Below, piece by piece: positions 6,167 to 49,484 of a stretch of DNA of 64,000 nucleotides. The stretch comes from Alphaproteobacteria bacterium (lineage in GTDB: Bacteria > Pseudomonadota > Alphaproteobacteria > Rs-D84), in the NCBI GenBank assembly GCA_029059055.1, contig JAIDWS010000035.1, positions 8,670 through 72,669 on the forward strand. Reading direction: 5' to 3'. Under the pieces are notes generated by a model. It saw only the letters and a program-made list of their open reading frames with translations, was not told where the DNA came from and did no database searches. A program made the position numbers and the translations under genes. Within the stretch, counting starts at the first letter, position 1. Every line of letters starts with the position of its first letter.

Positions 6167-8152
6167 ATGGAAAGCAAATTCTGGAACATCATTGGCGTTA
6201 TTGCGGTTGCCGCCGCCGTCGCCATTGCATATTTTGTATCAAAGGAAACACACATGACCACAGGCATCAAGACAGAAAACATGGACACCAGCGTTCGCCC
6301 CGGCGACGATTTTTATGATTACGCGACATTGGGCTGGCGCCGTGCCAATCCGATTCCGGACGATTACACACGTTACGGGTCGTTTGACGTTCTGCGGGAC
6401 CAGAATTTGAACCGCGTCCGCGAAATTGCCGAAACCGACGACGGAAAAATCGGCACATTGTACCGCGTGGCGATGGACGCAGACAAATTGAACGCCGACG
6501 GCACCGCGCCGGTTCAACCGTACCTGGCGGAAATTGACGCGATAAAATCGACGGATGAATTACCGGCATTTTTGGGCCGGATGCACCACCACGCAACGGC
6601 GTTCTGGGGCGACTGGGTTGCACTGGACGAAATGGACAGCACGCATTTCCTGTATAACATTGGCCAGGGTGCCATTGGTCTGTCGCGCGATTATTATTTT
6701 GATGACGATGAAAAATCCCGCGAAATCCGCACCAAGTACAAAAAATACATCACAGACCAAATGGCCAATTTCGGCATTCCGGTCGACGCGGAAAAATTAT
6801 ACACCCTGGAAGAACGCATGGCCAAATCATTTTATCCAAAAGAAAAACTGCGCGATCCCCACGCCAATTATCACAAGATGTCATTGGCGCAAATCCGCGC
6901 AGAATTTCCAGATTTTGATTGGGACGCATTTTTATCGGCACGCGGTGCAACCCCCGAATACATCAACATCGCCCAGGTTGAACCCATCGCCGAATCCATC
7001 AAAATCATGCACGACACAGATTTGGATTTGATTAAAACATATTTGAAATGGCGGATGATTAATTCTGGCGTGTCGTTGTTGGACGACAAAACATACGACA
7101 TCGCATTTGATTTTTACAATCGCACCATGGCGGGCCAACCCACGCCCAAGGCACGATGGAAACGCGCGGTATATTTACTGGACGATTCCCTGGGCGAAGA
7201 AATCGGCCGTCTGTACGTCAAAAAATATTTTTCCCCCGCGGCCAAAGACCGCATGCAGCATCTGGTTCAAAATCTGCAACGCGCATATCGGATGCGTATT
7301 GAAAAACTGGATTGGATGTCGGACGAAACCAAAGAAAAAGCCCTGGAAAAACTGGACACATTCCGCGCAAAAATCGGATATCCCGACCGTTGGCGTGATT
7401 ATTCGAAACTGGACATCCGGGATGATTCCCTGTGGGATAATATGGTGCGCGTCGCCGAATTCCAGGACCGCTTTTGGTTGGACAAAATCGGCGGTCCGAA
7501 CGATCCGACCCTGTGGTATATGAACGCCCACGAAGTCAACGCATATTACGACCCGTCGACCAACGAAATCTGTTTCCCGGCCGGCATTTTGCAACCGCCG
7601 TTTTTCGACATGGCGGCCGACGACGCGTTTAATTACGGCGCCATCGGCAGTGTGATTGGCCACGAAATGACGCACGGATTTGACGATTCCGGACGCAAAT
7701 TCGACCGCGATGGAAACCTGCGCGATTGGTGGACGGCGGCCGATGGCGCGCGCTTTGACGCCCAGGCATCCGTTCTGCGCGATTTTTTCAATAACATCCT
7801 GGTGGCACCCGGCACATATGCCAACGGTGAATTTACACTGGGCGAAAACTTGGCAGATTACGGCGGCATTACAATCGCGTTCACCGCGTACCAGAATTTT
7901 GCCACACCCGCCGCAACCGATGAACACGGCATGACGGGCGACATGCGCTTTTTCATCGCATACGCCGGGACCGAAGCCGGCAACATCCGCGACGACGCGA
8001 TTTTATTGCGGACAAAAACCGACGAACATTCGCTGTCGCGGTGGCGCGTAAACGGCATTTTGCCCCATATTGACGCATGGTACGACGCGTTCAACATCGG
8101 CCCGAACGACAAACTGTATGTCGCCCCGGATAAACGCATTAAATTATGGTAA
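6167..8152 (+). CDS. M13 family zinc metallopeptidase (neprilysin/PepO-like), type II membrane anchor
   Basis: N-terminal TM anchor, HEMTHGFDD (HExxH) and downstream GENLAD motif. Confidence 0.85.
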   Translation: MESKFWNIIGVIAVAAAVAIAYFVSKETHMTTGIKTENMDTSVRPGDDFYDYATLGWRRANPIPDDYTRYGSFDVLRDQNLNRVREIAETDDGKIGTLYRVAMDADKLNADGTAPVQPYLAEIDAIKSTDELPAFLGRMHHHATAFWGDWVALDEMDSTHFLYNIGQGAIGLSRDYYFDDDEKSREIRTKYKKYITDQMANFGIPVDAEKLYTLEERMAKSFYPKEKLRDPHANYHKMSLAQIRAEFPDFDWDAFLSARGATPEYINIAQVEPIAESIKIMHDTDLDLIKTYLKWRMINSGVSLLDDKTYDIAFDFYNRTMAGQPTPKARWKRAVYLLDDSLGEEIGRLYVKKYFSPAAKDRMQHLVQNLQRAYRMRIEKLDWMSDETKEKALEKLDTFRAKIGYPDRWRDYSKLDIRDDSLWDNMVRVAEFQDRFWLDKIGGPNDPTLWYMNAHEVNAYYDPSTNEICFPAGILQPPFFDMAADDAFNYGAIGSVIGHEMTHGFDDSGRKFDRDGNLRDWWTAADGARFDAQASVLRDFFNNILVAPGTYANGEFTLGENLADYGGITIAFTAYQNFATPAATDEHGMTGDMRFFIAYAGTEAGNIRDDAILLRTKTDEHSLSRWRVNGILPHIDAWYDAFNIGPNDKLYVAPDKRIKLW

Positions 8153-8181
8153 AAAAAACACCGGCAAATGCCGGTGTTTTT
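8151..8181. terminator. Bidirectional terminator, hairpin caccggcaaatgccggtg (copy 1 of 3 of this hairpin family)
   Basis: A-run, perfect 7-bp stem, T-run; lies between convergent genes. Confidence 0.6.
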
Positions 8182-9367: not shown

Positions 9368-9703
9368 ATGCAAAAGAATATCAAAGAAATTATGATTGCC
9401 CTGAACAAAGTCCTGACGACAACTGTTTGGGTCGACGAAAACCGCCAAATCGTATCGTTAAGTGACCAGTTGCAAATTGGCCGCAACAACGCGCCGCGTT
9501 CCATCGAAGATTTGTCACGCCCGTCCCTGGTTGGGGCATACGTATCGTTGCAAATTCGCACGGACAATTTTGACATCGCGGCCGAAAGCATGGATACCAA
9601 GGCATTGGCCATGCGCGTCAAAGAAATGGTCTTTGCCGAAGCAAAAAAGATTATGGACGCCGGCGACGCCGCATCGTCCGACAAGTTTGCCATGGCGGCA
9701 TAA
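9368..9703 (+). CDS. Hypothetical 111-aa protein downstream of an AT-rich intergenic region
   Basis: RBS aaaggggggaa; terminator hairpin at 9735-9770. Confidence 0.4.
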   Translation: MQKNIKEIMIALNKVLTTTVWVDENRQIVSLSDQLQIGRNNAPRSIEDLSRPSLVGAYVSLQIRTDNFDIAAESMDTKALAMRVKEMVFAEAKKIMDAGDAASSDKFAMAA

Positions 9704-9780
9704 CAGTTTCCGGTCCATACCGGAAGGAAGGGAGCCTGTCGGTCCATTCGGACCGACAGTTTTTTTATCATGACCATTTT

Positions 9781-9900
9781 ACTGGATTGCCACGCTGCGC
9801 TGACGCTTGCTCGCAATGACAAAGGAGGTGAAATTCCTGGAACTTTATCACCCTTGTCATTGCGAGCCATCGGCGAAGCAATCCAGTAAATAAATCCCCA
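9781..9900. repeat. Imperfect-palindromic repeat element of about 105-120 bp, copy 1 (actggattgc ... cgcaatgacaa ... ttgtcattgcga ... gcaatccagt, aataaatcccc tail)
   Basis: Nested inverted repeats; a second copy lies at 15560-15680. Confidence 0.7.
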
Positions 9901-9920
9901 CACCAATAAATTCAAATTCC

Positions 9921-9949
9921 TTGAAACTTCGCGTGGGATGCGATATACT
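9921..9949 (+). promoter_or_regulatory. Sigma70-like promoter TTGAAA-17-TATACT for leader A and its downstream gene
   Basis: Hexamers at 9921-9926 and 9944-9949, 17-bp spacer. Confidence 0.5.
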
Positions 9950-9955
9950 TTCCTT

Positions 9956-10125
9956 GCATTGGGAAACCGGTGTAGGCTTCAAAACCTAATAGTACTGTCA
10001 GTGATGACATTAAACTATCTCCAACCGTTGGTTGGGGGGCTGTGAATATATTGAATAAACAGCGCTATTGTACTAATAGTTTTGAACCTCCAACCACCCA
10101 AATGTTTTGGGTGGTGTTTTTAATA
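9956..10125 (+). ncRNA. Structured 5' leader / attenuator RNA A, with a possible 14-codon leader ORF at 9997-10041 and a terminator at 10089-10122
   Basis: Paralogous to 14259-14437. Conserved CCAACC..GGTTGG..GGTGAATA..GAATAAAC..TCCAACCACC blocks and a terminal hairpin with a T-run. Confidence 0.55.
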
Positions 10126-10147
10126 AAAAACCAAGGGAGTTTAAACT

Positions 10148-10375
10148 ATGGCAAAATTATTAATCGACGCCAATTACTATGGCAATATTATGCGATGCGC
10201 GCGACAACACCTGCGTATCAGCGTGGCCGATGCCGCCGCATTGTTGAAGATGAGCAAGAAAGATTACAAAAAATGCGAACGCGGGCATGATTTATTTGAC
10301 GAAGGTATCATGCGCCGATTTTACCACGGCGCATTTGCGATGCTGGTGATAAAGCGGGGTAAAAATAATCTGTGA
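10148..10375 (+). CDS. Small XRE-type HTH protein (75 aa) downstream of leader A
   Basis: RBS ccaagggag; HTH-like LRISVADAAALLKMSKKDYKKCERG. Confidence 0.45.
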   Translation: MAKLLIDANYYGNIMRCARQHLRISVADAAALLKMSKKDYKKCERGHDLFDEGIMRRFYHGAFAMLVIKRGKNNL

Positions 10376-10404
10376 CAGACCACCTGGCGGGGGCGTTTCC
10401 ACAT

Positions 10405-10434
10405 AAAAAACACCGGCAAATACCGGTGTTTTTT
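10405..10434. terminator. Bidirectional terminator, hairpin caccggcaaataccggtg (copy 2 of the family)
   Basis: Between convergent 10148-10375 (+) and ihfA (-). Confidence 0.6.
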
Positions 10435-10439
10435 GATGA

Positions 10440-10721
10440 TTATGCAACACGCTTTCTGAATTCGGTGCTGGGGCGGAATGTCGCCACGCGCCGCGCCGTT
10501 ATTAATGCCGGCGCACCCGTTTTCGGGTTGCGTCCCATACGGGGAGCTTTGTCCAAAATCTTGAAACTGCCCAGGCCCGCAAATTTGACTTCTTCGCCGT
10601 GAATCAATGATTCTTGGATTTCACCAAAAATCACATCCACCAATTTATACGAATCCGTCGTGGTCAGACCAAACTGTTCACGCAATTTGTTTGCAAAATC
10701 CATTCTGGTTATTGTTGCCAT
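10440..10721 (-). CDS. ihfA: Integration host factor subunit alpha
   Basis: GLGSFKILDKAPRMGRNPKTGAPALITARRVATF; conserved position downstream of fabH. Confidence 0.85.
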   Translation of the reverse strand: MATITRMDFANKLREQFGLTTTDSYKLVDVIFGEIQESLIHGEEVKFAGLGSFKILDKAPRMGRNPKTGAPALITARRVATFRPSTEFRKRVA

Positions 10722-10724
10722 TTT

Positions 10725-11663
10725 TTACACCCTGATTAATGCCGCGCCCCATGTTAAACCACTGCCGAACGCGGGATACAAAATCAATTGCCCACGTTGA
10801 ATCAGACCGCGGTCCATCCCATATGCCAACGCCAAAACACCCGATGCGCCACTGGTATTGGCATGTTTGTCCACGGTGACCAAAATCTTGTCCAGTGGGA
10901 AACCCAATCTTTCCGCGCCACTGTTAATAATGCGCAGATTCGCCTGGTGTGGGATAATCCAATCCACATTGTCCGCCGTGATGCCTGCATGTTGCATGAT
11001 GTAACTGGCGGCTTCGGGCATTAATGTGACGGCCTTTTTATACGTTTCGGGACCGTTCATAGAAATCTTGTGATCGGGCGTCCCGTGCAACATATCAAAC
11101 GATTTGCCGTCCGCCATCACAACCGTGTCAATAATGCCGGAATAACTGGACGTGGAATGTTCGAAAATCAATGCGCCCGCGCCATCACCGAACAATACGG
11201 CCGTGCTGCGGTCATCCCAATTGATAAACCGGGTCATTTTTTCCGCGCCGATAACCATGATACGGTGGTGAATCCCCGCGGTAAAGAACGCGCGCGCGCA
11301 ATGCAGTGCATAAATATATCCCGTACATGCCCCGCGCACGTCAAATGCCGGCTGGTCCCGGGTGGCGCCCAGTTTACCCAAAATCTGGACCCCGACCGAC
11401 GGGAAATCCAATTCGGATGTTGTTGTGGCCACCACCACCATATCGATATCGTCAATCGTCAGATTCGCATTATCCAGCGCACGCTGGGCCGCAATTGCGC
11501 CCATATCCACAACGGTTTCGTCATCGCGTGCAAAGTGGCGTTCGCGCATCCCGGTGCGTTGAACAATCCATTCGTCGGATGTGTCCATAATCTTTTCAAA
11601 ATCTTGATTGGTCATAATTTTTTCAGGCAAATATGACCCGTACCCAACCAGTCTGCTACCCAT
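10725..11663 (-). CDS. fabH: 3-oxoacyl-ACP synthase III
   Basis: Active-site GACTGYIYAL (Cys), ...IPHQAN..., ...GFGSGLTWGAALIRV. Confidence 0.9.
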   Translation of the reverse strand: MGSRLVGYGSYLPEKIMTNQDFEKIMDTSDEWIVQRTGMRERHFARDDETVVDMGAIAAQRALDNANLTIDDIDMVVVATTTSELDFPSVGVQILGKLGATRDQPAFDVRGACTGYIYALHCARAFFTAGIHHRIMVIGAEKMTRFINWDDRSTAVLFGDGAGALIFEHSTSSYSGIIDTVVMADGKSFDMLHGTPDHKISMNGPETYKKAVTLMPEAASYIMQHAGITADNVDWIIPHQANLRIINSGAERLGFPLDKILVTVDKHANTSGASGVLALAYGMDRGLIQRGQLILYPAFGSGLTWGAALIRV

Positions 11664-11752
11664 AACTTTTTCTCCATACTTATTTGACTATTATAGTCTG
11701 GCCGATAATAACTTGCAATATTAAAATCCAGCGAATAAGATATAAGGAATAC

Positions 11753-11828
11753 GTCCCCATAGTTCAATTGGATAGAACAAATTCCTCCTAAGAATTAAAT
11801 ACAGGTTCGATTCCTGTTGGGGATACCA
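11753..11828 (+). tRNA. tRNA-Arg (anticodon CCT)
   Basis: Manual cloverleaf: acceptor GTCCCCA/TGGGGAT, D-arm GTTC..GAAC, anticodon loop CTCCTAA, T-arm ACAGG-TTCGATT-CCTGT, CCA end; 76 nt. Confidence 0.85.
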
Positions 11829-11845
11829 TAAAAATCGCGTATAAT

Positions 11846-12181
11846 GTGGACGTCATGAAAAATAAAGCTGTAAAGATTGGAATCATCGCATCGCTGTTGC
11901 CGCATGTGTTTTGTTGCGGATTGCCGATTGCGCTGTCGATTATCGGATTGATTGCGCCGGAATCTGCGCATCTGCATATTATTCCGCAATGGCTGGAACC
12001 GTGGCTGTTCGTGTTTTCGGCCGGGATGTTGGGTCTGTCGTGGGTGTTGGTGGTGCGTGATTGCCGATGCGAATGCGACCATTGTCACGGCAATGACGGC
12101 CACAAACCCCAGAAATTTATTTTGGGCATCATCACCCTGATTTTTATCACCAGTGTGATTTTACATCTGATGTCGCATTAA
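11846..12181 (+). CDS. Small three-TM membrane protein with a CC motif in TM1 and a cytoplasmic CRCECDHC cluster (MerT-like metal transporter topology)
   Basis: HVFCCGLPIALSII in TM1 and a Cys cluster between TM2 and TM3 mirror MerT. Confidence 0.45.
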   Translation: MDVMKNKAVKIGIIASLLPHVFCCGLPIALSIIGLIAPESAHLHIIPQWLEPWLFVFSAGMLGLSWVLVVRDCRCECDHCHGNDGHKPQKFILGIITLIFITSVILHLMSH

Positions 12182-12182
12182 A

Positions 12183-12212
12183 ACAGAAACGGGGCCGGGC
12201 CCCGTTTTTTTA
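12183..12212. terminator. Bidirectional terminator (acggggccgggccccgt)
   Basis: GC hairpin with a T-run between convergent genes. Confidence 0.5.
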
Positions 12213-12752
12213 TTTGCCGATTTCGACCAACCATTCCTGTATCACGGGGCCTGCGTTTGCCGCATCCCCACCACGAATGGCGATGGCGCGCCCGTGCATG
12301 GAATTCGGGGTTAATTTTTCCACATCGGCGGCAATGGTGCCGGTACCGCTGCCTTCGTGGGTGTTAAACGGGATGACGGTTTTACCCGACAAATCCGCCG
12401 TGGTTAAAAACGTATGTACCGGACCGGCCATCGTCCCCCACCAACATGGCGTGCCGACAAATACCGTATCGTATTGCGTTAAATCCGGTATGGCGTTAAT
12501 CGCCGGGAAAGTACCGTTTTCAATTTCTGATTTGGCAACGACGGTGGCCGAACGATATTCGGCGGGATAATGGTTTGCGTCGGCCGTCGTGATTTCAAAG
12601 ATATCGGCATCGGTGGCCGATTTAATCAATTCCGCCACCGTCGCCGTATTACCCGAACGTGAATAATACGCGACCAGACTTTTGGCATCCGCCGCCCCGC
12701 ACAGTGCGACACCCGCGCACAATCCCCAGAATAAATGTTTCATGTTTTCCAT
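12210..12752 (-). CDS. Flavodoxin-like fold protein with N-terminal signal peptide
   Basis: SLVAYYSRSGNTATVAELI (flavodoxin T/SxTGxT-like loop). Hydrophobic N-terminus ...GLCAGVALCGAADA. Confidence 0.6.
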   Translation of the reverse strand: MENMKHLFWGLCAGVALCGAADAKSLVAYYSRSGNTATVAELIKSATDADIFEITTADANHYPAEYRSATVVAKSEIENGTFPAINAIPDLTQYDTVFVGTPCWWGTMAGPVHTFLTTADLSGKTVIPFNTHEGSGTGTIAADVEKLTPNSMHGRAIAIRGGDAANAGPVIQEWLVEIGK

Positions 12753-12765
12753 CCTGTTGTTAAGT

Positions 12766-13716
12766 TTATTTTTCGTCCAAATTGACCAATTCGTATGTCC
12801 GCACCCCCAGGCCGATTTCCGCCGCCGATTCCAACGTATGCAATCCGTTGCGTTCTGCGATGCGTTGCATCAGCGCGGCATTACCGTCGGCACGCGACAC
12901 CATGTCGATGGCGGCCTGGTCGATGGCAACGGGGTCGGTCGAAACCAAAATACCAATATCATGGATATCGGGTTCGGCCGGGTTGCCATTGCAATCACAA
13001 TCGATACTGATGCGGTTTAATACATTTATGTAAATGATGTTATCGCGCCCCAAATGGTCGACAACAGATTTGCCGGCGTCCGCCATTGATTCCAGAAATG
13101 CCGTTTGTTCCCCGCCCCACGGGTTGGTTTTACTGGTCCCGCCGCTGTGAATCCAAGATTTACCCATGCGACTGCCCAGGCCGATGGAAATATTCTTTAT
13201 CGCGCCGCCATATCCGGCCATGGCATGTCCCTTGAAATGCGACAGAATGATATAAGAATCATAATCATCAAAATGCGAACCGACATAATTTTCGGTTAAC
13301 ACTTTGCCCCCGTGAACCGGCAAAGCCATATCGCCATCTTCGTCCTGGATATCGACGGGCGCAACGTCAAAGAATCCGTGTTCTTTGACAACGCGCCAGT
13401 GATTGGCACTGTTGGCGCGCGCGCCGTCATATGCCGTATTGCATTCCACAATCGTCCCATCGACCGATTGAATCAAATCCCGCACCAAATCGGGGCGCAA
13501 ATAATTACTGCGCGGCGGTTCCCCCGTCGTCATTTTGACGGCGACGCGTCCCCGCGGCGTCCATCCGGCCGCACGGTATGCCCGGACCAGTCCCGCCGCC
13601 GAAATATCTGATGTAAAATAAACTTTTGGCATGGTTTCCCCCCTTGGTTTAAAAAATAAAAACAGCGCGGCTGAAACAATCACAATTCCCCCCGCAACAT
13701 ATGCCCAGATTTTCAT
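12766..13716 (-). CDS. DUF362 domain protein; second in-frame start with a strong SD at about 13632 (MPKVYF...)
   Basis: MPKVYFTSD...VAVKMTTGEPP matches the DUF362 N-terminal pattern. Both starts are preceded by GGGGGG-type SD sequences. Confidence 0.55.
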   Translation of the reverse strand: MKIWAYVAGGIVIVSAALFLFFKPRGETMPKVYFTSDISAAGLVRAYRAAGWTPRGRVAVKMTTGEPPRSNYLRPDLVRDLIQSVDGTIVECNTAYDGARANSANHWRVVKEHGFFDVAPVDIQDEDGDMALPVHGGKVLTENYVGSHFDDYDSYIILSHFKGHAMAGYGGAIKNISIGLGSRMGKSWIHSGGTSKTNPWGGEQTAFLESMADAGKSVVDHLGRDNIIYINVLNRISIDCDCNGNPAEPDIHDIGILVSTDPVAIDQAAIDMVSRADGNAALMQRIAERNGLHTLESAAEIGLGVRTYELVNLDEK

Positions 13717-13738
13717 CGGTTCACCCCCCTTTTTTTAT

Positions 13739-13785
13739 CTTGACTTTATTACTATAAATCTTAGACTTGTGTCTAAGTCAAGGAG
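13739..13785 (-). promoter_or_regulatory. MerR-type regulated promoter: on the minus strand TTGACT, a 19-bp spacer containing the dyad cttagac-N4-gtctaag, then TATAGT; divergent from merR
   Basis: The 19-bp spacer with a centred palindrome is the hallmark of MerR-family activated promoters. It drives the DUF362-flavodoxin operon. Confidence 0.6.
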
Positions 13786-13790
13786 TTTTT

Positions 13791-14198
13791 ATGCGTATCG
13801 GCGAAGTGGCCAAAATAACTGGTCTGACGGAACACACATTACGGTTTTATGAAAAATCGGGCCTGATGCCCGACACGGCCAAGCGGCGCGGTGGTATTCG
13901 TGATTATTGCGACACGGACATTGAACGGTTGGGGATTATTGAATGCCTGAAAAAGACGGGCATGCCCCTGCGCGATATCAAGACATTCATGCAATGGTGC
14001 GCCCAGGGCGACGCCAGCATTGAACAGCGTTACCAAATGTTTATCCAGCGCAAAGAAATTGTCCGGCAACAAATGGCGGAATTGAAAAAGACCATGTCGG
14101 TCATCGATTTTAAAATCAAATATTACGGTGACGCGCGCGATGCAGGCACGCTGGACATTTACAAAGATAAAAAGATTAAGAAGCCTGTATTTTTTTAA
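13791..14198 (+). CDS. MerR family transcriptional regulator with no metal-binding Cys pair
   Basis: MRIGEVAKITGLTEHTLRFYEKSGL (MerR HTH); SD AAGGAG; coiled-coil dimerisation region. Confidence 0.8.
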   Translation: MRIGEVAKITGLTEHTLRFYEKSGLMPDTAKRRGGIRDYCDTDIERLGIIECLKKTGMPLRDIKTFMQWCAQGDASIEQRYQMFIQRKEIVRQQMAELKKTMSVIDFKIKYYGDARDAGTLDIYKDKKIKKPVFF

Positions 14199-14223
14199 CC
14201 CATGCGCACCCATTTAAAAATGG

Positions 14224-14252
14224 GTGACATTTTCCAAAACATGCGATATAAT
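14224..14252 (+). promoter_or_regulatory. Sigma70-like promoter GTGACA-17-TATAAT for leader B
   Basis: Hexamers at 14224-14229 and 14247-14252. Confidence 0.5.
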
Positions 14253-14258
14253 ATGCCC

Positions 14259-14437
14259 CGTGGTGGCCGATGGCACCATGGGGCTTTACAACCCGTTGAA
14301 CGCGTCCGCGTGACGATAAACATTCCAACCCATTTGGTTGGAGTGTGGTGAATACATCGAATAAACCGCGCAATTCGTTCAATTGTTGTAAAACTCCAAC
14401 CACCTGAAAAAAATCCGGTGGTTTTATTTTTTGTTCG
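14259..14437 (+). ncRNA. Structured 5' leader / attenuator RNA B (paralogue of 9956-10125), with a possible 13-codon leader ORF at 14307-14348 and a terminator at 14394-14437
   Basis: Same conserved blocks and the same hairpin competition as leader A. Confidence 0.55.
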
Positions 14438-14446
14438 GGGTTAACA

Positions 14447-15235
14447 ATGAAATTTGTTTTATGGACAATTGCGTGCGTGATGGGGATGCCGGCGGTGGCA
14501 TGGGGCGTATGCGATGGGGGAATGTATTTAAACGGCACCACATGCGAAAAATGCGTCGATGGGTATTATTGTCCCGGTGACGACACGCAACATCCATGTC
14601 CGACGGACACGACCGATTGGTACGGATTCGTATCAACACTGTACCCGGTGGACCGGGTGACGCAACAATCATGGCTGATGTCGTGGGACCCCGGTTCATC
14701 GACAAACGGGGCCATCTGGCCGGCGCATTGTTTCGCAGGTGTCTTTATATCCAGCCCATATGGGGAACTGTATATCGAAAGCTGGTATAACGGCACCAAT
14801 TACTGGAACGGCGAACAGGCGTTTTTGTGGTACCAGGCCAACCCCGGATATTATTTGGCCCAATATGTCGGGACGACATATCATGTCTGGTACCGATACG
14901 CCCGGCCATGCACAAATCTGCCGGAACATGCACATTATACCGGCGCCGGCACGCCCGATTCCGCCGATGGCACCATTCGGGATGCAAACGATTGCCCGTG
15001 GGAATGCGATGACGGATACGGCAATCATGACGGGGTGTGCGTGCCGTTGTGCGACGGCGTCAATCGGTTAAAGACCGGCAACGGTCGAACATTTAATTTA
15101 TACCCCATGGCATATACCACGCCGTCATTGCGCATTGAATATGGCGGCAAAACATGCTATGGCGTGTTAAAGTCGGGCGCGGCCGCATCAATCAATCTGC
15201 GATACAATAACCAAACGTATCACCTGTCTGACTAA
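14447..15235 (+). CDS. Secreted cysteine-rich protein (signal peptide; CEKCVDGYYCPG furin/TNFR-like Cys repeats; Trp/Tyr-rich core)
   Basis: Signal peptide MKFVLWTIACVMGMPAVAWG; Cys spacing reminiscent of eukaryotic Cys-rich repeats. Confidence 0.5.
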   Translation: MKFVLWTIACVMGMPAVAWGVCDGGMYLNGTTCEKCVDGYYCPGDDTQHPCPTDTTDWYGFVSTLYPVDRVTQQSWLMSWDPGSSTNGAIWPAHCFAGVFISSPYGELYIESWYNGTNYWNGEQAFLWYQANPGYYLAQYVGTTYHVWYRYARPCTNLPEHAHYTGAGTPDSADGTIRDANDCPWECDDGYGNHDGVCVPLCDGVNRLKTGNGRTFNLYPMAYTTPSLRIEYGGKTCYGVLKSGAAASINLRYNNQTYHLSD

Positions 15236-15308
15236 GGCTGGATTTTCATCCTGTATATTTTGCGCCATCACTGTGATACAATATCCCCAGAAACAGAAAG
15301 GTTATATC

Positions 15309-15476
15309 ATGCCCCTGAAACAAGGTTGCACCCGCAAAACCATATCCGAAAACATCCGCGCCGAAGTCCATGCCGGCCGCCCCCAGAAACAGGCGGTGGC
15401 GATTGCCCTGTCGATTGCGGACAAAAACGCATACAAATGCCGCCCCCGCAAACCATCCCTGAAAAAGGCGAAATAA
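15309..15476 (+). CDS. Small basic conserved protein (55 aa; KQAVAIALSIA motif)
   Basis: Resembles a widespread small-protein family with a ...RKQA(I/V)AIALS.A... core. The ORF extends in-frame back to 15273. Confidence 0.35.
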   Translation: MPLKQGCTRKTISENIRAEVHAGRPQKQAVAIALSIADKNAYKCRPRKPSLKKAK

Positions 15477-15559
15477 AATCCCCCGCAACCGCCGTTTTTT
15501 TGTTAAATCACTTTGTCCCTTTTGGCATCCCATAACGCGCACAATGCCCTATTCCTATT

Positions 15560-15680
15560 ACTGGATTGCTTCACTGCGTTCGCAATGACAATGGTGTTTA
15601 ATTTCCCGGCTACTTCATCCCCTTTGTCATTGCGAAGGAGTGAAACGACTGCGGCAATCCAGTGAATAAAATCCCCGCCA
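15560..15680. repeat. Imperfect-palindromic repeat element, copy 2
   Basis: Same termini (actggattgc/gcaatccagt) and core (cgcaatgacaa/ttgtcattgcga) as 9781-9900. Confidence 0.7.
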
Positions 15681-24700: not shown

Positions 24701-25876
24701 ACCCGGACGGATGATGTTATAAATTTCAATCAACGCTTCTTCGCGGTTGGTGGTCTTGTCGGCCATCAAAGTATTGCGGATATGCGCGCTGATGGTGGCA
24801 TTGTCAATGGAAATCAGGGAAATGTTTTTAATATCCCGCTTTTCCAAATCGGCCAAAACTTCTTCTGTGATTTCGGTACCGGCCGGGTACAAAACTTCGT
24901 CCCCCACCATAATCGGATCAAACAGATATTCCCCAATCAGGGCATCTGTCGCCATACCGAATTCTTTGGACGCGGCCATGATTTTGGCCAAACGTTTCGC
25001 GTTCAAACGGTCACCCTTGGACGCCAAAACTTTCTTGTCCTTGGGGTTAATGATATCGTAATTCAAACGATATTTATCCAGCCCTTCGAACACAGCGGTT
25101 TCACCAACCCACAGTTTGCCGTCAAAGGCCAACGGGATACGCTTGTAAAACGCGGCCAAGATTTCTGTTTCACTCATCCCGCGGATGGATGTCTTGCGCG
25201 GGTCGGCCAACCATTTCTTTTCATCTTCGGCCGCCGGCAGGCAACGCAACAACACCGTTGCCGGGATTTTACGGCGACGGTCGATGCGGACATAGATAAC
25301 GCCCTTGGCTTCTTCGAAATCAATCCAGCTGCCATGTTCGGGGATGATACGCGCTGTATACGTAACCGGGTTACCGGCGACCTTGGATTCTTTGGTCGTA
25401 CCGAACACAACACCCTGGGCGCGGTGCATCTGGGAAACGATAACACGTTCGACACCCGATGCGATAAAGCTGCCGCGTTCAGTCATCAGCGGCACTTCGC
25501 CCATAAATATTTCTTGTTCCTTGATATCGCGCAAAGACTTCTTACCATCTTCTGCGACATCCCATAAAATCAATCTCAGCTTCAATTTCAGCTTGCTGGA
25601 ATATGTCATATTACGCAGCATGCATTCTTTTACGTTGTAGACAGGCTTGTCCAATGTGTATTCAACGAATTCCAGGTCGGCAACGCCGGCATAATCCTTG
25701 ATCGGGAACATGGACGAGAATACGTTTTGCAGCCCAATATTTTTACGGTTCTGTGGGTCTACATCTGCCTGCAAAAAATCTTTGTAAGAATTATATTGAA
25801 TTTCAACTAAATCAGGAAGCGGAGTTTGCAAAAAACTTTTACCAAAAGATTTTCTAAGTTTCTGGATAACTGCCAT
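21740..25876 (-). CDS. rpoB: DNA-directed RNA polymerase subunit beta
   Basis: 1378 aa; conserved rifampicin-cluster region and C-terminus. Confidence 0.97.
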   Translation of the reverse strand: MAVIQKLRKSFGKSFLQTPLPDLVEIQYNSYKDFLQADVDPQNRKNIGLQNVFSSMFPIKDYAGVADLEFVEYTLDKPVYNVKECMLRNMTYSSKLKLKLRLILWDVAEDGKKSLRDIKEQEIFMGEVPLMTERGSFIASGVERVIVSQMHRAQGVVFGTTKESKVAGNPVTYTARIIPEHGSWIDFEEAKGVIYVRIDRRRKIPATVLLRCLPAAEDEKKWLADPRKTSIRGMSETEILAAFYKRIPLAFDGKLWVGETAVFEGLDKYRLNYDIINPKDKKVLASKGDRLNAKRLAKIMAASKEFGMATDALIGEYLFDPIMVGDEVLYPAGTEITEEVLADLEKRDIKNISLISIDNATISAHIRNTLMADKTTNREEALIEIYNIIRPGERPTLEAAINLFLRQGFEAAYYDLSAVGRFKMNKRLKIESGKKPEDERLLTKADFLAVLKTLTNIIDRKDVVDDIDNLSNRRVRTVGELLEQNFRTGMVRIERLVREALSSPNIANMQPQDVINVKPLMSLVSEFLGTSQLSQFMDAYNPLAELEHKRRISALGPGGLNRDRAGIDVRDVHPTHYGRLCPIHTPEGANIGLINHLAAYARVNPYGFIETPYYVVENSKITDKIVYLTADEELGHKIAQGNTPTTAAGVLSEDVVTARVDGEFTMVPKEEIDLIDVEPRQVMSIATGLIPFVESDDANRALMGSNMQRQAVPLLRVEAPLVGTGIEREVARDSRTGKVAKHSGVVESVDANRIVVKCMNSRNVVTGVDIYNLEKFERSNSETLIHQKPLVKVGDRISAGDIIADGSSMNYGELALGRNVLVAFMPWRGYNYEDSIVISERISRDDVYTSVKIVEKEFKVRDTQLGPESLTRDIPNVSEEALKNLDESGIIYVGARVKQGDILVGRVSPKSETLLTPEEALLRNIFGEKALNVKDTSLRVGPNEEGTVIGVNVLTRHGVKKDERTQMIELQKIEKINKDREEEIAIIEKGFADQIFQIAEGAVIDAGTGSLKPFVGKKLTEEVFEGIRPADMKKIVVRNKEAQTRIDELREQHIIKLKQLNEKADAEVAKATESNSLNAGVLKEVKVYIAHKMKLQPGDKMAGRHGNKGIVSKVVPIEDMPHLADGTPVDLVLNPLGVPSRMNIGQILETHLGMAARALGQQIGDVLEEVKQKRAVTDDLRSVMGKVYGKDVSEKLDKMTDTDVRAEAALLKNGVPMATPTFDGATPEDIRRMLKLAKLPETGQFTLYDGMTGEPFARPVTVGVMYMLKLHHFVDEKIHARSIGNYSLVTQQPLSGKAHMGGQRLGEMEVWALEAHGAAHLLREMLTVKSDDIAGRNKMYESIISGSNDIQTGTPEAFNVFVRELRGLGLAMTPKKID

Positions 25877-26049
25877 TGTTTGAATCCTTTCTTTTTTGTG
25901 TTTTGCAAACGAAAAAGTTTGCGAATTATTCGCTGTCCCTTTTTACGCCTGGATGCCCGCCTGGGATATACAGCATCCCAAGCGGGCGGCGAAATCGCAA
26001 ATTTGCGATTTTACAGATTGGTGGGACCGCCCCCGCGGTCCCGGCGGAA

Positions 26050-26415
26050 TTATTTCAATTCCACTTTCGCGCCAGCGGCTTCCAAGGTCGCTTTCAGCTT
26101 TTCAGCTTCGTCCTTGCTGGCACCTTCTTTGACAGCCTTCGGCGCGGATTCGACCAAAGCTTTCGCTTCGCCCAAGCCCAAACCTGTGATGTCTTTTACA
26201 GCCTTGATGACAGCCAATTTGTTCGCACCGGCTTCGGCCAGAACGACATCAAATTCTGTCTTTTCTTCTGCGGCGGCCGCGGCCGGACCAGCAGCAACTG
26301 CAACAGCTGCGGCGGCGCTGACGCCCCATGTTTCTTCCAACGCTTTGGACAGTTCAACAGCTTCCAAAACGGACAATTTGGACAATTCTTCAACCAATTT
26401 CTGAATGTCTGCCAT
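26050..26415 (-). CDS. rplL: 50S ribosomal protein L7/L12
   Basis: Ala-rich hinge; [16 protein letters not shown]. Confidence 0.95.
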
Positions 26416-26463
26416 TTTATACTCCTATTCGGGTGTTTTGCAGAATGTTTCCATTCTGTATTA

Positions 26464-26943
26464 TTATTGTTCTTTTTTTCCATACTCTGCGGAAACACGG
26501 GCCAGGCGTGACGCCGGTTCGACCAAGATACGTGCAATCGTACCACGGATTTCCAACAGGGACGGAAGCTTGGATAATTGCATAACGCCGTCTGTATCCA
26601 GAAGTTCCGCGTCCATTTTACCACCAACGATGGTCAGATTCGGATGGGCTTCGGCAAATTTGGCCAAAACCTTGGTCACGGCCAGCGCGTCTGTCGCCAC
26701 TGCAACAGCGGTGGGCCGTTTCATCAAATCAGAAACGGGCGCAAAGTCGGTGTCTTTCAACGCCAACTTCATCAAACGGTTTTTCACGACTTTGAACACG
26801 GAAACCAAACCGCGCAATTCATTACGCAGGCTTTCCATTTCCTTAACCGTCAAACCGTGGTTTTCAACAACGAAAACACCGTTCGCTTCTTTCAGGGACG
26901 ACTGTAACGCTGAAATCAAATCTGATTTTTCTTCGCGTCTCAT
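26464..26943 (-). CDS. rplJ: 50S ribosomal protein L10
   Basis: Start MRREEKSDLISAL... The upstream in-frame extension to 27051 is not conserved. Confidence 0.9.
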   Translation of the reverse strand: MRREEKSDLISALQSSLKEANGVFVVENHGLTVKEMESLRNELRGLVSVFKVVKNRLMKLALKDTDFAPVSDLMKRPTAVAVATDALAVTKVLAKFAEAHPNLTIVGGKMDAELLDTDGVMQLSKLPSLLEIRGTIARILVEPASRLARVSAEYGKKEQ

Positions 26944-27160
26944 TTTGTCATTTTCCTTCAAGCTTCTTTTGTTTAACTTTCCATCCCGGGTTTCCCCGGG
27001 GTGGGGCTGTTTCCCGTCCGGTTGCCCGGGCGGGGCTTTTTCCTGCCCCAAAGAATTTTTTCTTTGTCTATGATGGCGTTTGGTTTAAGCGTTTAATCGC
27101 ACCATCAGTCTTGGACAGAAATCTGTTTTGCCGTCCGGCGCGAACGCCGGACATGCGGTA
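26944..27160 (-). promoter_or_regulatory. Putative L10(L12) autoregulatory leader upstream of rplJ (GC-rich hairpins)
   Basis: Position and strong secondary-structure potential (cccgggcgggg..., ccccggggtgggg). Confidence 0.35.
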
Positions 27161-27835
27161 TTATTTCGCTTCGACTTTCAGACCCGGGCCCTGGGTGGTC
27201 GCAATTGCGCAACCCAAGATGTATTGACCCTTGCTGGTGGCCGGCTTTACCTTTTTCAGCTGTTCAATCAACGCATTCGCGTTTTCAACCAACTGCTGTG
27301 TGGCAAAGGACATTTTACCGATACCGGCGTGAACGATACCTTTCTTTTCCGCACGGTATTCAATCTGACCGGCTTTGGCTGTTGCAACCGCTTCGGCGAC
27401 GTTGTTGGTAACCGTCCCCAGTTTCGGGTTCGGCATCAGCCCCTTGGGCCCCAAGATACGTGCAACCTTGGACATTTTCGGCATCATATCCGGTGTGGCG
27501 ATAACACGGTCGAAATTGATTTCACCGGCTGCGACTTTTTCAATCAAATCTTCGCCACCAACGACATCGGCGCCGGCCTTTTTGGCTTCGTCCTGGGCAT
27601 TGGCTGTGAACACCGCAACGCGGACGGTTTTACCCGTACCATGCGGCAAAGACAACATACCACGAATGTTCTGGTCTGCCTTGGCCACATCGACGCCCAA
27701 ACGAACGGCGATTTCCAGGCTTTCATCGAATTTCTTGGAACAATACGGACGCAGTGCTTCGATTGCATCGGCAATGGAATAAACTTTGTCTGTGTCCAGG
27801 TTCGCCCAAGTTTTTTGTCTTTTTGTAACTTTCAT
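27161..27835 (-). CDS. rplA: 50S ribosomal protein L1
   Basis: Full-length L1. Confidence 0.95.
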   Translation of the reverse strand: MKVTKRQKTWANLDTDKVYSIADAIEALRPYCSKKFDESLEIAVRLGVDVAKADQNIRGMLSLPHGTGKTVRVAVFTANAQDEAKKAGADVVGGEDLIEKVAAGEINFDRVIATPDMMPKMSKVARILGPKGLMPNPKLGTVTNNVAEAVATAKAGQIEYRAEKKGIVHAGIGKMSFATQQLVENANALIEQLKKVKPATSKGQYILGCAIATTQGPGLKVEAK

Positions 27836-27838
27836 ATC

Positions 27839-28270
27839 TTATTCCCCCACCTTTACGCCCATGGAACGGCACTGACCGGCGACGATATTCATCGCAGATT
27901 CAATGGTAGAGCAATTTAAGTCCGGCATTTTCGCTTCGGCAATCTGTTTGATTTGGTCCTGGGAAATGGTCCCGACGAAATCACGGCCCGGTTTGTGGGA
28001 CCCGATTTTCAGCTTCAACGCCTTTTTGATGTAATACGACACCGGCGGCAGCTTCATAATGAATTCAAAGCTGCGGTCTGTATAAACCGTGATAATGCAC
28101 GGAATCGGCATACCCGGTTCCTTGTCCGCGGTTTTGTCGTTAAACTGTTTGCAGAATTCGGCGATATTCACGCCGGCCGCACCCAACGCCGGCCCAATCG
28201 GTGGCGCAGGATTCGCTTGTTTTGCGGGAACGACCAGTTTGACCACTCCCTTTACTTCTTTCTTTGCCAT
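27839..28270 (-). CDS. rplK: 50S ribosomal protein L11
   Basis: [14 protein letters not shown] motif. Confidence 0.95.
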
Positions 28271-28541
28271 TTTTCACTCCATTTAATTTTTGATGCACAT
28301 GCATCTGGTTGTGCCGTGGTACGATGTGGCGCATCCACCACGGTTTTGCGATTTTTACAAAAACCGCATAAAAAACTCTGTTCTACTCAGCGACTTTTTG
28401 CCTTTAACCGGGCATAATAATCTGCAATCGCTTTTCGGGCCCAATCCGGATTTTTGGTTTTAAAGCCGGATACCAGCAACGCCACCGTCACCATATTTTT
28501 CAGCTTTTCTTTGGTCGGCGCCACCCATACAAACTCTTTCA

Positions 28542-29716: not shown

Positions 29717-30376
29717 GTGGCAGACCGCATAGAGCCGCCGATTTTACTGTCCAGACTGATGACATTCGTCTTTGCCGCCGCGTTGGTGGTGGTGGTCGTA
29801 TTGGTGGTCACACTGGCCAAGATGTTCCCGCTGAACCGGCCCCAGATATTCTTTTTAACGACCCAGCCGCGCGCCGATTTGGAAATCCGGCTGTATCCGA
29901 TGCCGCCCAGCGACGAAAACGTTGATATTTACAAGCGCAGCTTTATCAAGGAATATATCAAGGCCCGCAATGAAATCATCCCGAACGTCGGCGTAATGCG
30001 CCGCAAATGGTCAAATACCGACGACGGCATCGTGAACATGTGGTCAACACCGGATGTGTATGCCACCATGACCCAGACGGATTTATGGACCGCGTACATG
30101 AACGATGTGCCGGACACAGAATTCTATTGCCCGGTGGAATTTGCCCCCAACGCCATTGCCCCGCGTTCAGAAAACACATATGCGGTCAGTTTTACGTATT
30201 TTTGCACAAATAATAATGGACAGACCGATAAAAAAGATTATACAATTGTAATCAGATTGGAATCTGACGAAAACCCGACGATTAAGTGGGGGGACCGCCT
30301 GAATAACCCGTTGGGGATTCGTGTGGCCGAATATACGGTTGAATCCGGAAACGGTGACCCGTTGGACTTTAAATAA
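29717..30376 (+). CDS. virB8: VirB8/TrbF-like bitopic inner-membrane protein (short cytoplasmic tail, one TM, periplasmic domain with C-terminal NPLG motif); GTG start
   Basis: Topology and C-terminal ...RLNNPLGIRVAEYTV (NPxG motif of the VirB8/NTF2-like family). First gene of a 3-gene operon with VirB9/VirB10 homologues. Confidence 0.5.
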   Translation: MADRIEPPILLSRLMTFVFAAALVVVVVLVVTLAKMFPLNRPQIFFLTTQPRADLEIRLYPMPPSDENVDIYKRSFIKEYIKARNEIIPNVGVMRRKWSNTDDGIVNMWSTPDVYATMTQTDLWTAYMNDVPDTEFYCPVEFAPNAIAPRSENTYAVSFTYFCTNNNGQTDKKDYTIVIRLESDENPTIKWGDRLNNPLGIRVAEYTVESGNGDPLDFK

Positions 30377-30415
30377 ACCGGCGCGTCGGACGATATACTA
30401 AGGAAAGGGACCATA

Positions 30416-31954
30416 ATGACTTTTTCAAAAGCATTGAAGTTAAACGTATCCGTAATTTGCCTGGGGGCGTTGTGCTGTGCGGCACCGGCCGGGGCGGCGA
30501 CCGAATACGGGATTCAATCGGCATGGGACAATCCCAACGCCAACATGGCCGCCGGCAGTATTAAGCCCGGATATGCCCAGTTGTCTTGGTCCGCGGGCAA
30601 TGTTTTGCCGATTAAATTGCGCAATGGTATGGTGACAATGGTCACGTTGCCCAACGGCGAACAGATTGCCGACGCCCAGATTGGTAACGCCGGTCTGTTT
30701 GATATCCAGGCGACCCAGGGTGAACGCACCATGTTCATCAGCCCCATGCCGGACAATCTGGGGTCGGATACGAACCTGATTGTGATTGGCAAATCGGGCA
30801 ATGTTTATACTTTTTATCTGCGCAGCGAACCGTCGAATTCCAGTGAAATCACCCATTCCCAGGTGGACGTCGTTCTGGACGGCAACGCCAGTCTGCCGAT
30901 GGCATCGGCCACCGGCACCACATCGGGCGGCATGAATTCTATATTCAAGAAAAAGGCGTCATCGACCGCATCCACTGTTGGTGTTGACGGCGAAGATTAC
31001 GGTTGGATTAAATCGATGAAAATCGACCCGTCGGAATTTCGTTTCGATTTGGATATTTTCGTACCGAACCCGGATGATTACGTCATTGCGCCCGAACGCG
31101 TCTGGCGCGACCGCATCTTTACATACATTGATTTCGGGGACAAAGTCATCGCCATGACCCAGCGTCCGGTTGTATCCCTGTTGGTCGAAGGTGGCGAATC
31201 CCCGGTCGGATTCCGCACCGATGGCGAAGACGGTCGTCTGTTAATTGTCGAAGCGGTTGGCGACATGGTTCTGCGCAGTGGCCAACGCATCGTTTGTATT
31301 AAAAAGCGTGAAAAACCGTTCTTGATTGCGGATACGGCGTCTGTTATGGCATTGGCCGAAGCGAACGTTGCCCAATCCATGTTGTCGGGTCAATCGCTGA
31401 ACAATATTGCGTATAACGCAGACCTGGCCGCGATGAGTGGGTCTGTCAACAATTACACCACGACACCAATGTTTTCGTATAATGGCGCCGCGCCCCAGCA
31501 GATGAACGCCGGCGTATACGGCGGATATTATGCACCCACGGGTTATAATGCACCGGCACCGACATCGGGTGGTGTGACCATGTTGCCGACCGAACGCAAC
31601 ACGGCGGGGGCATATTTGCCGCAAACAAACATTCCGTTAATCACCAGCAACCAAACCGGCGTTGCGGTGGAATTGAAATCCGACACATCGGTCAAGGCTT
31701 TGAATGATTACTGGACGGGCTTGCTGGCGAAATTCAGCGGCGAAGACGGCCAGGGTCTGTTGACACCGTACAAAGACAGCGTGTTCTTTGCGGTCGATGA
31801 ACAGGGTGTCGGCGACCTGGGGGCGGATTCATCAACGGCGCGCCTGTACCGTTTGCGCATCGGGCCGATGTCCGACATTGACACCGCCCAGCGTCTGTGT
31901 GACCAGATGTTGAAATTCAGCGGCACCAGTTGCCACGTTGTGCGCATTCAGTAA
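30416..31954 (+). CDS. virB9: VirB9/TrbG/CagX-like protein with a low-complexity linker and a C-terminal SPOR-like domain
   Basis: Signal peptide; N-terminal domain ...TNLIVIGKSGNVYTFYLRS; C-terminal beta-sandwich ...GDMVLRSGQRIVCIKKRE. Terminal RLRIGPMSDIDTAQRLCDQMLKFSGTSCHVVRIQ resembles the FtsN SPOR domain (RVVIGPVKGKENADSTLNRLKMAGHTNCIRL). Confidence 0.7.
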   Translation: MTFSKALKLNVSVICLGALCCAAPAGAATEYGIQSAWDNPNANMAAGSIKPGYAQLSWSAGNVLPIKLRNGMVTMVTLPNGEQIADAQIGNAGLFDIQATQGERTMFISPMPDNLGSDTNLIVIGKSGNVYTFYLRSEPSNSSEITHSQVDVVLDGNASLPMASATGTTSGGMNSIFKKKASSTASTVGVDGEDYGWIKSMKIDPSEFRFDLDIFVPNPDDYVIAPERVWRDRIFTYIDFGDKVIAMTQRPVVSLLVEGGESPVGFRTDGEDGRLLIVEAVGDMVLRSGQRIVCIKKREKPFLIADTASVMALAEANVAQSMLSGQSLNNIAYNADLAAMSGSVNNYTTTPMFSYNGAAPQQMNAGVYGGYYAPTGYNAPAPTSGGVTMLPTERNTAGAYLPQTNIPLITSNQTGVAVELKSDTSVKALNDYWTGLLAKFSGEDGQGLLTPYKDSVFFAVDEQGVGDLGADSSTARLYRLRIGPMSDIDTAQRLCDQMLKFSGTSCHVVRIQ

Positions 31955-32000
31955 TCAGTTGGGGGGACCGCATACACATGCGGCGGGTAACGGGTAACAG

Positions 32001-49454: not shown

Positions 49455-49484
49455 CAAAAAAACACCGGCAAATGCCGGTGTTTT
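49455..49484. terminator. Bidirectional terminator, hairpin caccggcaaatgccggtg (copy 3 of the family)
   Basis: Between convergent rmuC and the RND pump gene. Confidence 0.6.

Follow-up and report, generated by a model that had tools for sequence, protein, structure and literature searches.

A multi-copy leader RNA family of Enterousia/Rs-D84 alphaproteobacteria, probably a transcription-attenuation switch ahead of secreted cysteine-rich proteins and small regulators

Our analysis of a 64,000-nucleotide (nt) stretch of an alphaproteobacterial genome of the order Rs-D84 (contig JAIDWS010000035.1; the whole stretch is called the window below) centered on a structured RNA of ~175 nt, copy B, that precedes a gene for a secreted, cysteine-rich protein. 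Copy B, which forms the 5′ leader of this gene (14447-15235), probably acts in cis as a transcription-attenuation switch, and it is a member of a multi-copy family specific to the Enterousia/Rs-D84 lineage. It combines three generic features of a riboswitch: a covarying aptamer-like domain, a mutually exclusive terminator and antiterminator, and a cis position in the 5′ untranslated region. The leader represents an RNA family that is new to Rfam 15 and to the searchable literature, and it is of a known kind, the riboswitch-like terminator/antiterminator leader. With Rfam 15 at the gathering threshold, the whole window gave three tRNAs only; at E ≤ 10, the region 14000-14700 gave only chance-level matches, none of them on the plus-strand element, and at E ≤ 1, no match overlapped the element in four loci with strong family members. 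Literature searches by lineage, topic, and sequence strings did not find the motif described.

The features of copy B are collected in Table 1. Its promoter agrees with the sigma-70 consensus at 11 of 12 positions, is the top scorer in 9600-15600, and would place the transcription start near 14259. The structured RNA runs from ~14259-14260, the match to our covariance model (R1, see below) spans 14278-14437, and 10 nt separate the end of the terminator (14437) from the ATG of the Cys-rich open reading frame (ORF) at 14447. An earlier, sequence-only reading had described copy B as the sibling of a second leader in the window, copy A, and had described the promoter, the conserved cores (GGTGAATA at 14347-14354 and GAATAAAC at 14359-14366), the terminator (CTCCAACCACC...GGTGGTTTT), and the ORF; all of them are present, and the comparison with shuffled sequences and the covariance model bear the observation out. 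It had bounded the conserved blocks and terminator at 14300-14437, which is right at the 3′ end and slightly late at the start. The core it had singled out is indeed conserved, but most of it is the loop that caps a covarying hairpin (H5), and it is no pairing segment.

The window holds exactly two copies of the leader, as found by an unfiltered covariance-model search (140.9 bits for copy B and 131.9 bits for copy A); the next-best match scored 20.7 bits, with the core absent. A repeat scan aligned 14311-14404 of copy B with 10005-10098 of copy A at 70% identity over 94 nt, and compensatory changes distinguish the long closing stem of the two (CUUUACAAC/GUUGUAAA in B, CUUCAAAAC/GUUUUGAA in A). 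Compared with shuffled sequences, the folding energies gave z = -5.3 and -5.8 for the two copies, and 0/200 shuffles were as good. As the same fold is present in both, lies far above shuffles, and has a compensatory closing stem, we regard the two leaders as real and not as a chance match. That selection acts on an RNA structure, and that the pair is no recent duplication, had been proposed from the sequence and agrees with our results, since the stems differ by compensatory changes and covariation is strong in 115-117 relatives. The alignment of leaders that had been suggested as a check found substitutions to be compensatory and the stems kept. The parallel check on leader ORFs failed: these ORFs are not conserved, and an ORF with an ATG and a Shine-Dalgarno (SD) sequence that reads into the switch is present in only 2/117 leaders. 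As to the weak 20.7-bit match (62716-62822, plus strand; E 0.004), it covers the outer helix and the terminator only, with the whole core missing; it is either a chance match driven by the terminator or a decayed or minimal relative like the short match in locus L131.

To recover relatives, a pattern built from blocks common to A, B, and the close relatives of A (GGTTGG-N8-GAATA-N4-GAATAA-N20-50-TCCAACC) was scanned against GTDB with one genome per species, and its match count is a lower bound. More than 118 stretches matched. Among the matches listed, all are in gut or rumen alphaproteobacterial metagenome-assembled genomes (MAGs) of Enterousia/Rs-D84 type, many of them named Candidatus Enterousia and the rest Rickettsiales or Alphaproteobacteria bacterium. 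These bacteria fall within the order Rs-D84, and their genomes measure about 0.75-1.0 Mb (PMC12306168). Even under this strict pattern, single MAGs carry at least 5-6 copies, with at least 6 loci in JAZQCF01, at least 6 in CAMWON01, and at least 5 in JAFUTJ01. The covariance model found 115 copies in the fetched loci, including some that the pattern had missed, and a -10 TATAAT and a -35 TTG lie at a fixed distance upstream throughout the family. In two places, a pair of leaders stands in tandem before one gene (L071:2773-3097 on the minus strand and L085:3414-3771 on the plus strand), an arrangement known for some riboswitches and T-boxes. Three IMG/VR contigs, classed as viral, also have the leader, before a 316-amino-acid (aa) secreted protein (L127:12038-12204, L128:8458-8624, and L129:786-952). 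Their neighboring genes are prophage-like and encode an endolysin-like protein, a DNA methyltransferase, and a nuclease of PLD type, so that the leader may also be in use in phages or prophages of the Enterousia/Rs-D84 lineage. A viral origin of the leader was considered on the strength of these three contigs and rejected, as they carry it in the usual position before a secreted protein.

The terminator-on (OFF) fold was derived by folding 40 very different members singly, projecting their minimum free energy (MFE) pairs onto a 36-sequence alignment, and re-aligning the 115 matches of the resulting model R1. Single-sequence folding gave the same MFE architecture in nearly all of the 40 diverged members: a 5′ hairpin (H0), long-range helices P1/P2 closing a junction with three hairpins (H3, H4, and H5), and then the terminator. 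In the R1 alignment, pairing over the 45 pairs of this fold reaches 91.9%, where column shuffles give 73.2% and slid controls ~47%; compensatory changes occur in 36 pairs, double-change cells number 966 against 270, and 0/500 shuffles reach any of these measures. P1 (helix 1) has 12 pairs, 8 of them compensated, and P2 (helices 2-3) is about 91% paired with 7/7 pairs compensated. H3 is weak in copy B and missing from a short subclass of the family. H4 (helix 5), which in family terms pairs segment 1 CUCCAACC with segment 2 GGUUGGAG, is 91.5% paired, and segment 2 is 92-100% conserved. The H5 stem (helix 6) reaches 98.3% with 5/5 pairs compensated and closes a near-invariant loop, GAAUAnnnnGAAUAA (GAAUA-NNNN-GAAUAA), whose GAAUA...GAAUAA positions are 94-99% conserved, also in the copies found without the pattern. 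The terminator (helix 7), with a 5′ arm that reads AACC(A/G)CC in the family and begins inside segment 3, is 90.8% paired with 4 pairs compensated, and its U-tract positions are 80-90% U.

Two independent checks that were blind to the fold agree with it. On a plain MAFFT alignment, never fitted to structure, inner P1 is 90.7% paired with 7/7 pairs compensated, H4 is 95.8% paired, and the terminator 93.2%; H0 has 7/8 pairs compensated, with 65% of cells paired as a result of register shifts. The top 15 column pairs by structure-blind mutual information belong to P1, P2, H3, H5, and the terminator. For P1, a simple search for 8-nt complements could not be told apart from its control, and RNAalifold on the gappy 117-sequence MAFFT alignment returned the antiterminator and part of the terminator only.

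That antiterminator defines the alternative (ON) fold, in which segment 2 leaves segment 1 for segment 3 (GGUUGGAG:CUCCAACC; in copy B, 14336-14344 with 14393-14401, a perfect 9-bp helix). Although the antiterminator and the two hairpins X and Y described here were counted on the alignment fitted to the OFF fold and not to the ON fold, the antiterminator is 98.6% paired, its ninth pair is GC79/UA25/UG8 with 33 GC/UA switches, and RNAalifold picked the helix independently. Hairpin X pairs the 5′ GGGG with the CCCN past the P1 strand (3:23 GC32/UA23/GU12/CG6; 4:22 GC74/GU19/AU15); in copy B, GGG of the P1 5′ region pairs with CCC at 14292-14294 and leaves the P1 strand in the loop. Hairpin Y is made by the CUAU and AUAG flanks of the P2 3′ strand (235:264 UA64/AU31), which are CAAUU and AAUUG in copy B, with the P2 strand in the loop. 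For the whole ON fold, the observed values were attained in 0/500 shuffles, and pairing breaks down in the slid controls. The antiterminator uses up both the CUCCA needed for P1 and the AACC needed for the terminator, and the OFF and ON folds are therefore mutually exclusive.

Further evidence for the exchange of partners came from a divergent subtype of the leader (subtype 2; L131, L134, L018, L036, and L097), in which CCCCGA / UCGGGG(UG) / (CA)CCCCGACC replaces CUCCAACC / GGUUGGAG / CUCCAACC. The same two positions are altered in segments 1, 2, and 3 alike, and the architecture is kept; the third switch segment of this subtype is also given as CACCCCGACC, with a related loop UUAUAUAUCGAAGA. 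At the level of sequence, this three-way compensation directly supports a segment 2 that would alternate between partners 1 and 3. R1 detects subtype 2 only weakly, and the family is therefore larger than the counts given here.

Table 1. Coordinates of the leader features. Window positions unless a locus is named.
Feature	Position (strand)	Details
Copy A leader	9921..10130 (+)	promoter TTGAAA-17-TATACT; architecture as in copy B; terminator
Copy B promoter	14224..14252 (+)	-35 GTGACA 14224-14229; 17-nt spacer; -10 TATAAT 14247-14252
H0, 5′-terminal hairpin	14260..14279 (+)	sequence variable in family; from copy B MFE fold
P1 5′ strand	14279..14292 (+)	UGGGG 14279-14283 with CUCCA of segment 3; UUUACAAC 14285-14292 with 14385-14392
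P2 5′ strand GUUGAACG	14295..14302 (+)	pairs with 14376-14383
H3, small optional hairpin	14303..14315 (+)	helix 4; 5/5 pairs compensated, 94.5% paired
H4, anti-antiterminator hairpin	14323..14344 (+)	segment 1 UUCCAACC 14323-14330; loop; segment 2 GGUUGGAGU 14336-14344
H5 hairpin	14345..14369 (+)	5-bp covarying stem; 15-nt loop GAAUACAUCGAAUAA 14350-14364
P2 3′ strand region	14371..14385 (+)	CGUUCAAU 14376-14383; flanks CAAUU 14371-14375 and AAUUG 14381-14385
P1 3′ strand and segment 3 region	14385..14401 (+)	GUUGUAAA 14385-14392; segment 3 CUCCAACC 14394-14401
Intrinsic terminator	14398..14432 (+)	AACCACC 14398-14404 with GGUGGUU 14418-14424; U-tract UUUUAUUUUUU 14422-14432
Gene behind copy B	14437..15235 (+)	SD-like GGGG 14437-14440; ATG 14447; ORF 14447-15235
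Subtype 2, L131	950-1170	
Subtype 2, L134	974-1172	
Subtype 2, L018	~2011	
Subtype 2, L036	~3986 (-)	
Subtype 2, L097	1674-1881	

The position of the leader relative to genes is nearly constant. In nearly all copies, the start codon of a same-strand ORF, with an SD-like sequence before it, lies 40-60 nt past segment 3 or 10-30 nt past the U-tract. The sequence-only reading had the copy B leader end in a terminator directly before the secreted Cys-rich protein, and this arrangement, with SD, start codon, and shared strand, is repeated behind nearly every member of the family. The downstream genes belong to unrelated families. Two families of small helix-turn-helix (HTH) proteins account for 19 and 8 of 119; taken as a class, small regulators make up 23% of downstream genes; several types of Cys-rich proteins with signal peptides, small secreted proteins with a TANQTMAGTYTVSG motif, and a few other genes, among them an ABC transporter, a glycosyltransferase, and a DNA methylase, were also found. 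Of the downstream proteins longer than 95 aa (n = 65), 43 have a signal-peptide-like N-terminus and 31 contain at least 4% Cys. Some 30 nt upstream of the -10 in L024 and L120 (degenerate in L108 and L122), a perfect palindrome with 11-12-nt arms, AAAACGGTTGCAA-N-GCAACCGTTTT, lies over the -35; only a few leaders, linked to HTH genes, have it, and it may serve the downstream HTH protein as operator or the upstream gene as terminator.

Since these relatives had been found through the RNA, we also started from the protein side, with six diverged homologues of the copy B protein in different housekeeping contexts, a sample that is unbiased with respect to the RNA pattern. Five of the six are behind a family leader: typical leaders are directly upstream in L135 and L132 (117 and 83 bits), the divergent subtype is present in L134 and L131, and the homologue in L133 follows a co-oriented gene that itself stands behind a leader. 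The leader is absent in L130. The copy B protein has 262 aa, a signal peptide, many Cys, and no Pfam domain. All 60 homologues detected are annotated as hypothetical and come from Alphaproteobacteria MAGs, with at least 6 paralogues in one MAG, and by these sequence matches the family is lineage-restricted and paralogous. The N-terminus of the copy B protein (CDGGMYLNGTTCEKCVDGYYCPGDD...) gave a sub-threshold match to a TNF-receptor/ELAPOR-like Cys-rich repeat (E 5e-4; 20.4 bits where the cutoff is 33.2), which brings to mind Cys repeats of eukaryote-like or variant-surface-protein type. A MerR-family regulator (13767-14198, plus strand) stops 26 nt short of the copy B -35; its divergent partners are a DUF362 protein and a flavodoxin (12210-13716, minus strand).

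Copy A lies upstream of a 75-aa HTH-like ORF (10148-10375), with which it forms a unit (window 9790-10400; L003-L008). In the index of the assembly collection, 454 blocks contain the identical 75-aa protein, and the contexts of the unit differ (L28/parC, tRNA synthetase/CvpA, and IHF/fabH, the last being that of the window). A palindromic repeat, CACCCTTGTCATTGCGAGC...GCAATCCAG, is found at its upstream border, and the ORF is far better conserved than the RNA interior. The unit may be a relocating cassette.

How the two folds could be exchanged can be modeled from their energies and their order of synthesis. In silico, OFF is the more stable fold: its advantage over ON is 10.4 ± 7.8 kcal/mol for the full-length RNA and 8.7 ± 7.2 kcal/mol when segment 3 has only just emerged (-57.9 versus -35.9 kcal/mol in copy B). 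Given this greater computed stability of the OFF fold, termination is presumably the default state. During transcription, the local hairpins X, H3, H4, H5, and Y would form first. P1/P2 would then zip up and displace X and Y, locking H4 and sequestering CUCCA, so that the terminator forms; segment 3 would in this OFF state be divided between P1, through its CUCCA, and the 5′ arm of the terminator. Should P1/P2 fail to form, with their strands held in the loops of X and Y, segment 3 would invade H4 and the antiterminator would take the 5′ arm of the terminator, allowing read-through. The invasion would start at the ninth pair of segment 3, because position 173 pairs with 279 in 97% of sequences and with its H4 partner in only 64%. 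An effector would decide whether P1/P2 form, and one that stabilizes the compact junction would make the leader an OFF switch.

The 15-nt loop of H5 is the only strongly conserved block that both folds leave unexplained. Judging from conservation alone, it is the prime candidate for a sensor or docking element. A mutual information scan gave no covariation partner for its four central positions, and the window contains no complementary site with which the loop could pair. One speculation is that the loop docks on the conserved internal loop (CC/AUA) that separates P1 from P2, whose distance from the junction is roughly the length of H5. The effector could be a small ligand or ion that stabilizes the junction, with the H5 loop as sensor or docking element of an OFF riboswitch, an assignment we put forward tentatively and with rather less than even confidence. 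It is more doubtful whether the family is a new riboswitch class, or a factor-read RNA switch acting through the H5 loop, that senses a global signal and gates secreted or surface proteins together with small regulators. No candidate trans-factor or second-messenger enzyme was found among the ~50 ORFs scanned in the window, which has a housekeeping NusG only.

Several observations weigh against a conditional attenuation switch as proposed here. The downstream genes (secreted Cys-rich proteins, small HTH proteins, and a few others) have no common metabolic theme that would hint at a ligand. The OFF fold is so much more stable in silico that switching must be kinetic or driven by an effector, which is an assumption, and the H5 loop, being invariant, cannot covary. 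Two members, L023 and L067, have no U-tract past the last hairpin. Finally, columns 8:231 of alignment A5 covary strongly (CG57/UA32/AG11) and fit neither fold, and the structural model is therefore incomplete; column 8 is the P1 bulge (C14284 in copy B) and column 231 the nucleotide after H5 (G14370), and the two may meet at the junction or in the tertiary structure, or they may belong to a third conformer.

Comparison with known regulatory RNAs reveals likenesses to several classes. Riboswitch platforms of the SAM-I (four-way-junction) type likewise have a multi-helix junction, a long-range P1 that shares its 3′ side with the antiterminator, a terminator that follows, and several copies per genome. 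Riboswitches for c-di-GMP (I/II) also precede mostly genes for surface or secreted proteins and regulators and not those of one pathway; the likeness to these GEMM RNAs is limited to the type of downstream gene, as there is no covariance-model match. Ion-sensing riboswitches such as yybP-ykoY (Mn2+) offer a resemblance in their junction of four helices and in a strongly conserved loop that might dock on a conserved internal loop, for which CC/AUA would be the hypothetical counterpart here; Rfam gave no match, and the genes behind our leader are not transporters. In contrast to riboswitches, the most conserved part of the leader is a 15-nt terminal loop and not the junction nucleotides, and both of its long-range strands have covarying "parking" hairpins, X and Y. 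T-boxes are also large structured leaders with many members per genome and with an antiterminator competing with a terminator, but the leader has neither a T-box sequence nor a Stem I with specifier (no Rfam match), its downstream genes are not aminoacyl-tRNA synthetase or amino-acid genes, and a T-box-like specifier sought in the center of the H5 loop had no link to gene class. In PyrR pyr attenuators and in TRAP, ANTAR, and LicT/SacY systems, an anti-antiterminator (here H4 with P1/P2), an antiterminator, and a terminator compete in the same manner, and PyrR-type attenuators similarly reuse one leader before several transcription units. The PyrR binding loop, the dual hexaloop hairpins of ANTAR, and the RAT sequence are all missing from our leader, which has no Rfam match and a much larger domain; their absence lowers the case for membership in these classes and not that for a protein effector.

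Such an effector is the subject of the closest alternative, in which the same two-fold attenuator is read at the GAAUA...GAAUAA loop of H5 by a macromolecule, either a lineage-specific RNA-binding protein or a trans RNA, and would resemble PyrR, TRAP, ANTAR, or LicT-type systems. A 15-nt loop with two GAAUA repeats is closer to what a protein dimer or repeat protein would bind than to a typical junction pocket. The regulon, too, is broad and has no metabolic character, and the 23% of small regulators downstream make autoregulatory circuits plausible. We rate an effector of this kind as nearly as likely as a small ligand or ion. Against it, no candidate RNA-binding protein is encoded beside the leaders or in the window, the small HTH proteins resemble common DNA binders of XRE type, and a covarying multi-helix junction of ~130 nt exceeds the needs of simple protein-binding attenuators; the variable center of the loop has neither covariation nor a specifier-like tie to gene class, and the window contains no complementary sequence elsewhere. 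The terminated transcript of ~175 nt might instead be the product itself, a multi-copy trans-acting small RNA (a sponge, or a seed carrier via its loop) whose position upstream of genes is incidental. Its own promoter, 5′ hairpin, and strong terminator would by default be expected to yield a stable small RNA, and several copies per genome share the invariant loop. This is unlikely, as orientation and spacing to the downstream SD and start codon are near-invariant, the covarying antiterminator and hairpins X and Y make sense only if read-through matters, and tandem copies precede single genes; the terminated transcript may still have a second role besides the cis switch.

At about the same low level, if anything a shade lower, stands a constitutive cassette of promoter, stabilizing 5′ structure, and leaky terminator, which would set a fixed low output or insulate neighboring genes with no conditional switching. 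It agrees with OFF being the predicted MFE fold nearly everywhere, by ~10 kcal/mol over ON, and with an analysis that points to no effector, but it needs no compensated 9-bp antiterminator, no X or Y, and no loop conserved at 94-99%. That the leader is a mobile repeat of MITE or REP type, or a recent duplication, that brings along a promoter and a terminator and owes its conservation to copying, appears very improbable: despite the multiple copies and the varied contexts of the copy A/HTH unit beside a palindromic repeat, identity between copies of one genome is only about 70%, with compensatory differences in the stems, the repeat scan and alignments revealed no terminal inverted repeats or target duplications, and the leader always points toward the downstream gene and is shared by unrelated protein families. 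An attenuator of trp type, in which a ribosome translating a leader peptide would cover segment 1, has the classical 1:2 / 2:3 / 3:4 pairing logic in its favor, as well as ORFs that in both A and B stop at the UGA of the UGAAUA motif. It is effectively refuted by the want of a conserved ORF. An ATG and SD ORF reaching into segment 2 occurs in the same 2/117 leaders, the ATG in copy B falls within the -10 region and precedes the probable transcription start, the stop positions simply reflect the UGA and UAA of the conserved loop, and the compensatory stem changes would scramble the peptide.

Other genes of the window include housekeeping genes, a type IV secretion system of VirB8/9/10 type, an RND efflux pump, and others. 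The homologues of VirB8, VirB9/CagX, and VirB10/TrbI at 29717-34436 indicate a type IV secretion system in a reduced genome. Four neighboring ORFs (25876-28417) lack both a Pfam match and a leader. A terminator hairpin, AAAAAACACCGGCAAATGCCGGTGTTTT, is present three times (8152-8180, 10404-10432, and 49456-49484; two exact and one 93% identical, repeat family D2) and represents a terminator module in repeated use. The 3′ end of the tRNA at 55140-55210, with the hairpin that follows it (to 55252), is directly repeated at 55374-55426 and 56247-56299 (96% and 77% identity), and these repeats resemble att-site scars left by elements that integrated at this tRNA.

To our knowledge, the Enterousia/Rs-D84 lineage has almost no characterized biology. 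Its members are uncultured, widespread in gut and rumen, and have genomes under 1 Mb (PMC12306168). With both conformations of the proposed attenuation switch visible in covariation, down to the parking hairpins, the family is unusually clean; it is a good orphan-riboswitch candidate and a useful model of co-transcriptional folding. That one leader recurs at least 5-6 times per genome, before small regulators and secreted Cys-rich proteins, points to a single signal common to them. Such a signal would control the cell surface or secretome, and the leader RNA offers a handle for finding it. If a global signal is indeed sensed, candidates would be a second messenger, an ion, or a host- or gut-derived cue, and the leader would be a major regulatory layer in a symbiont lineage of less than 1 Mb that has lost most conventional regulation.

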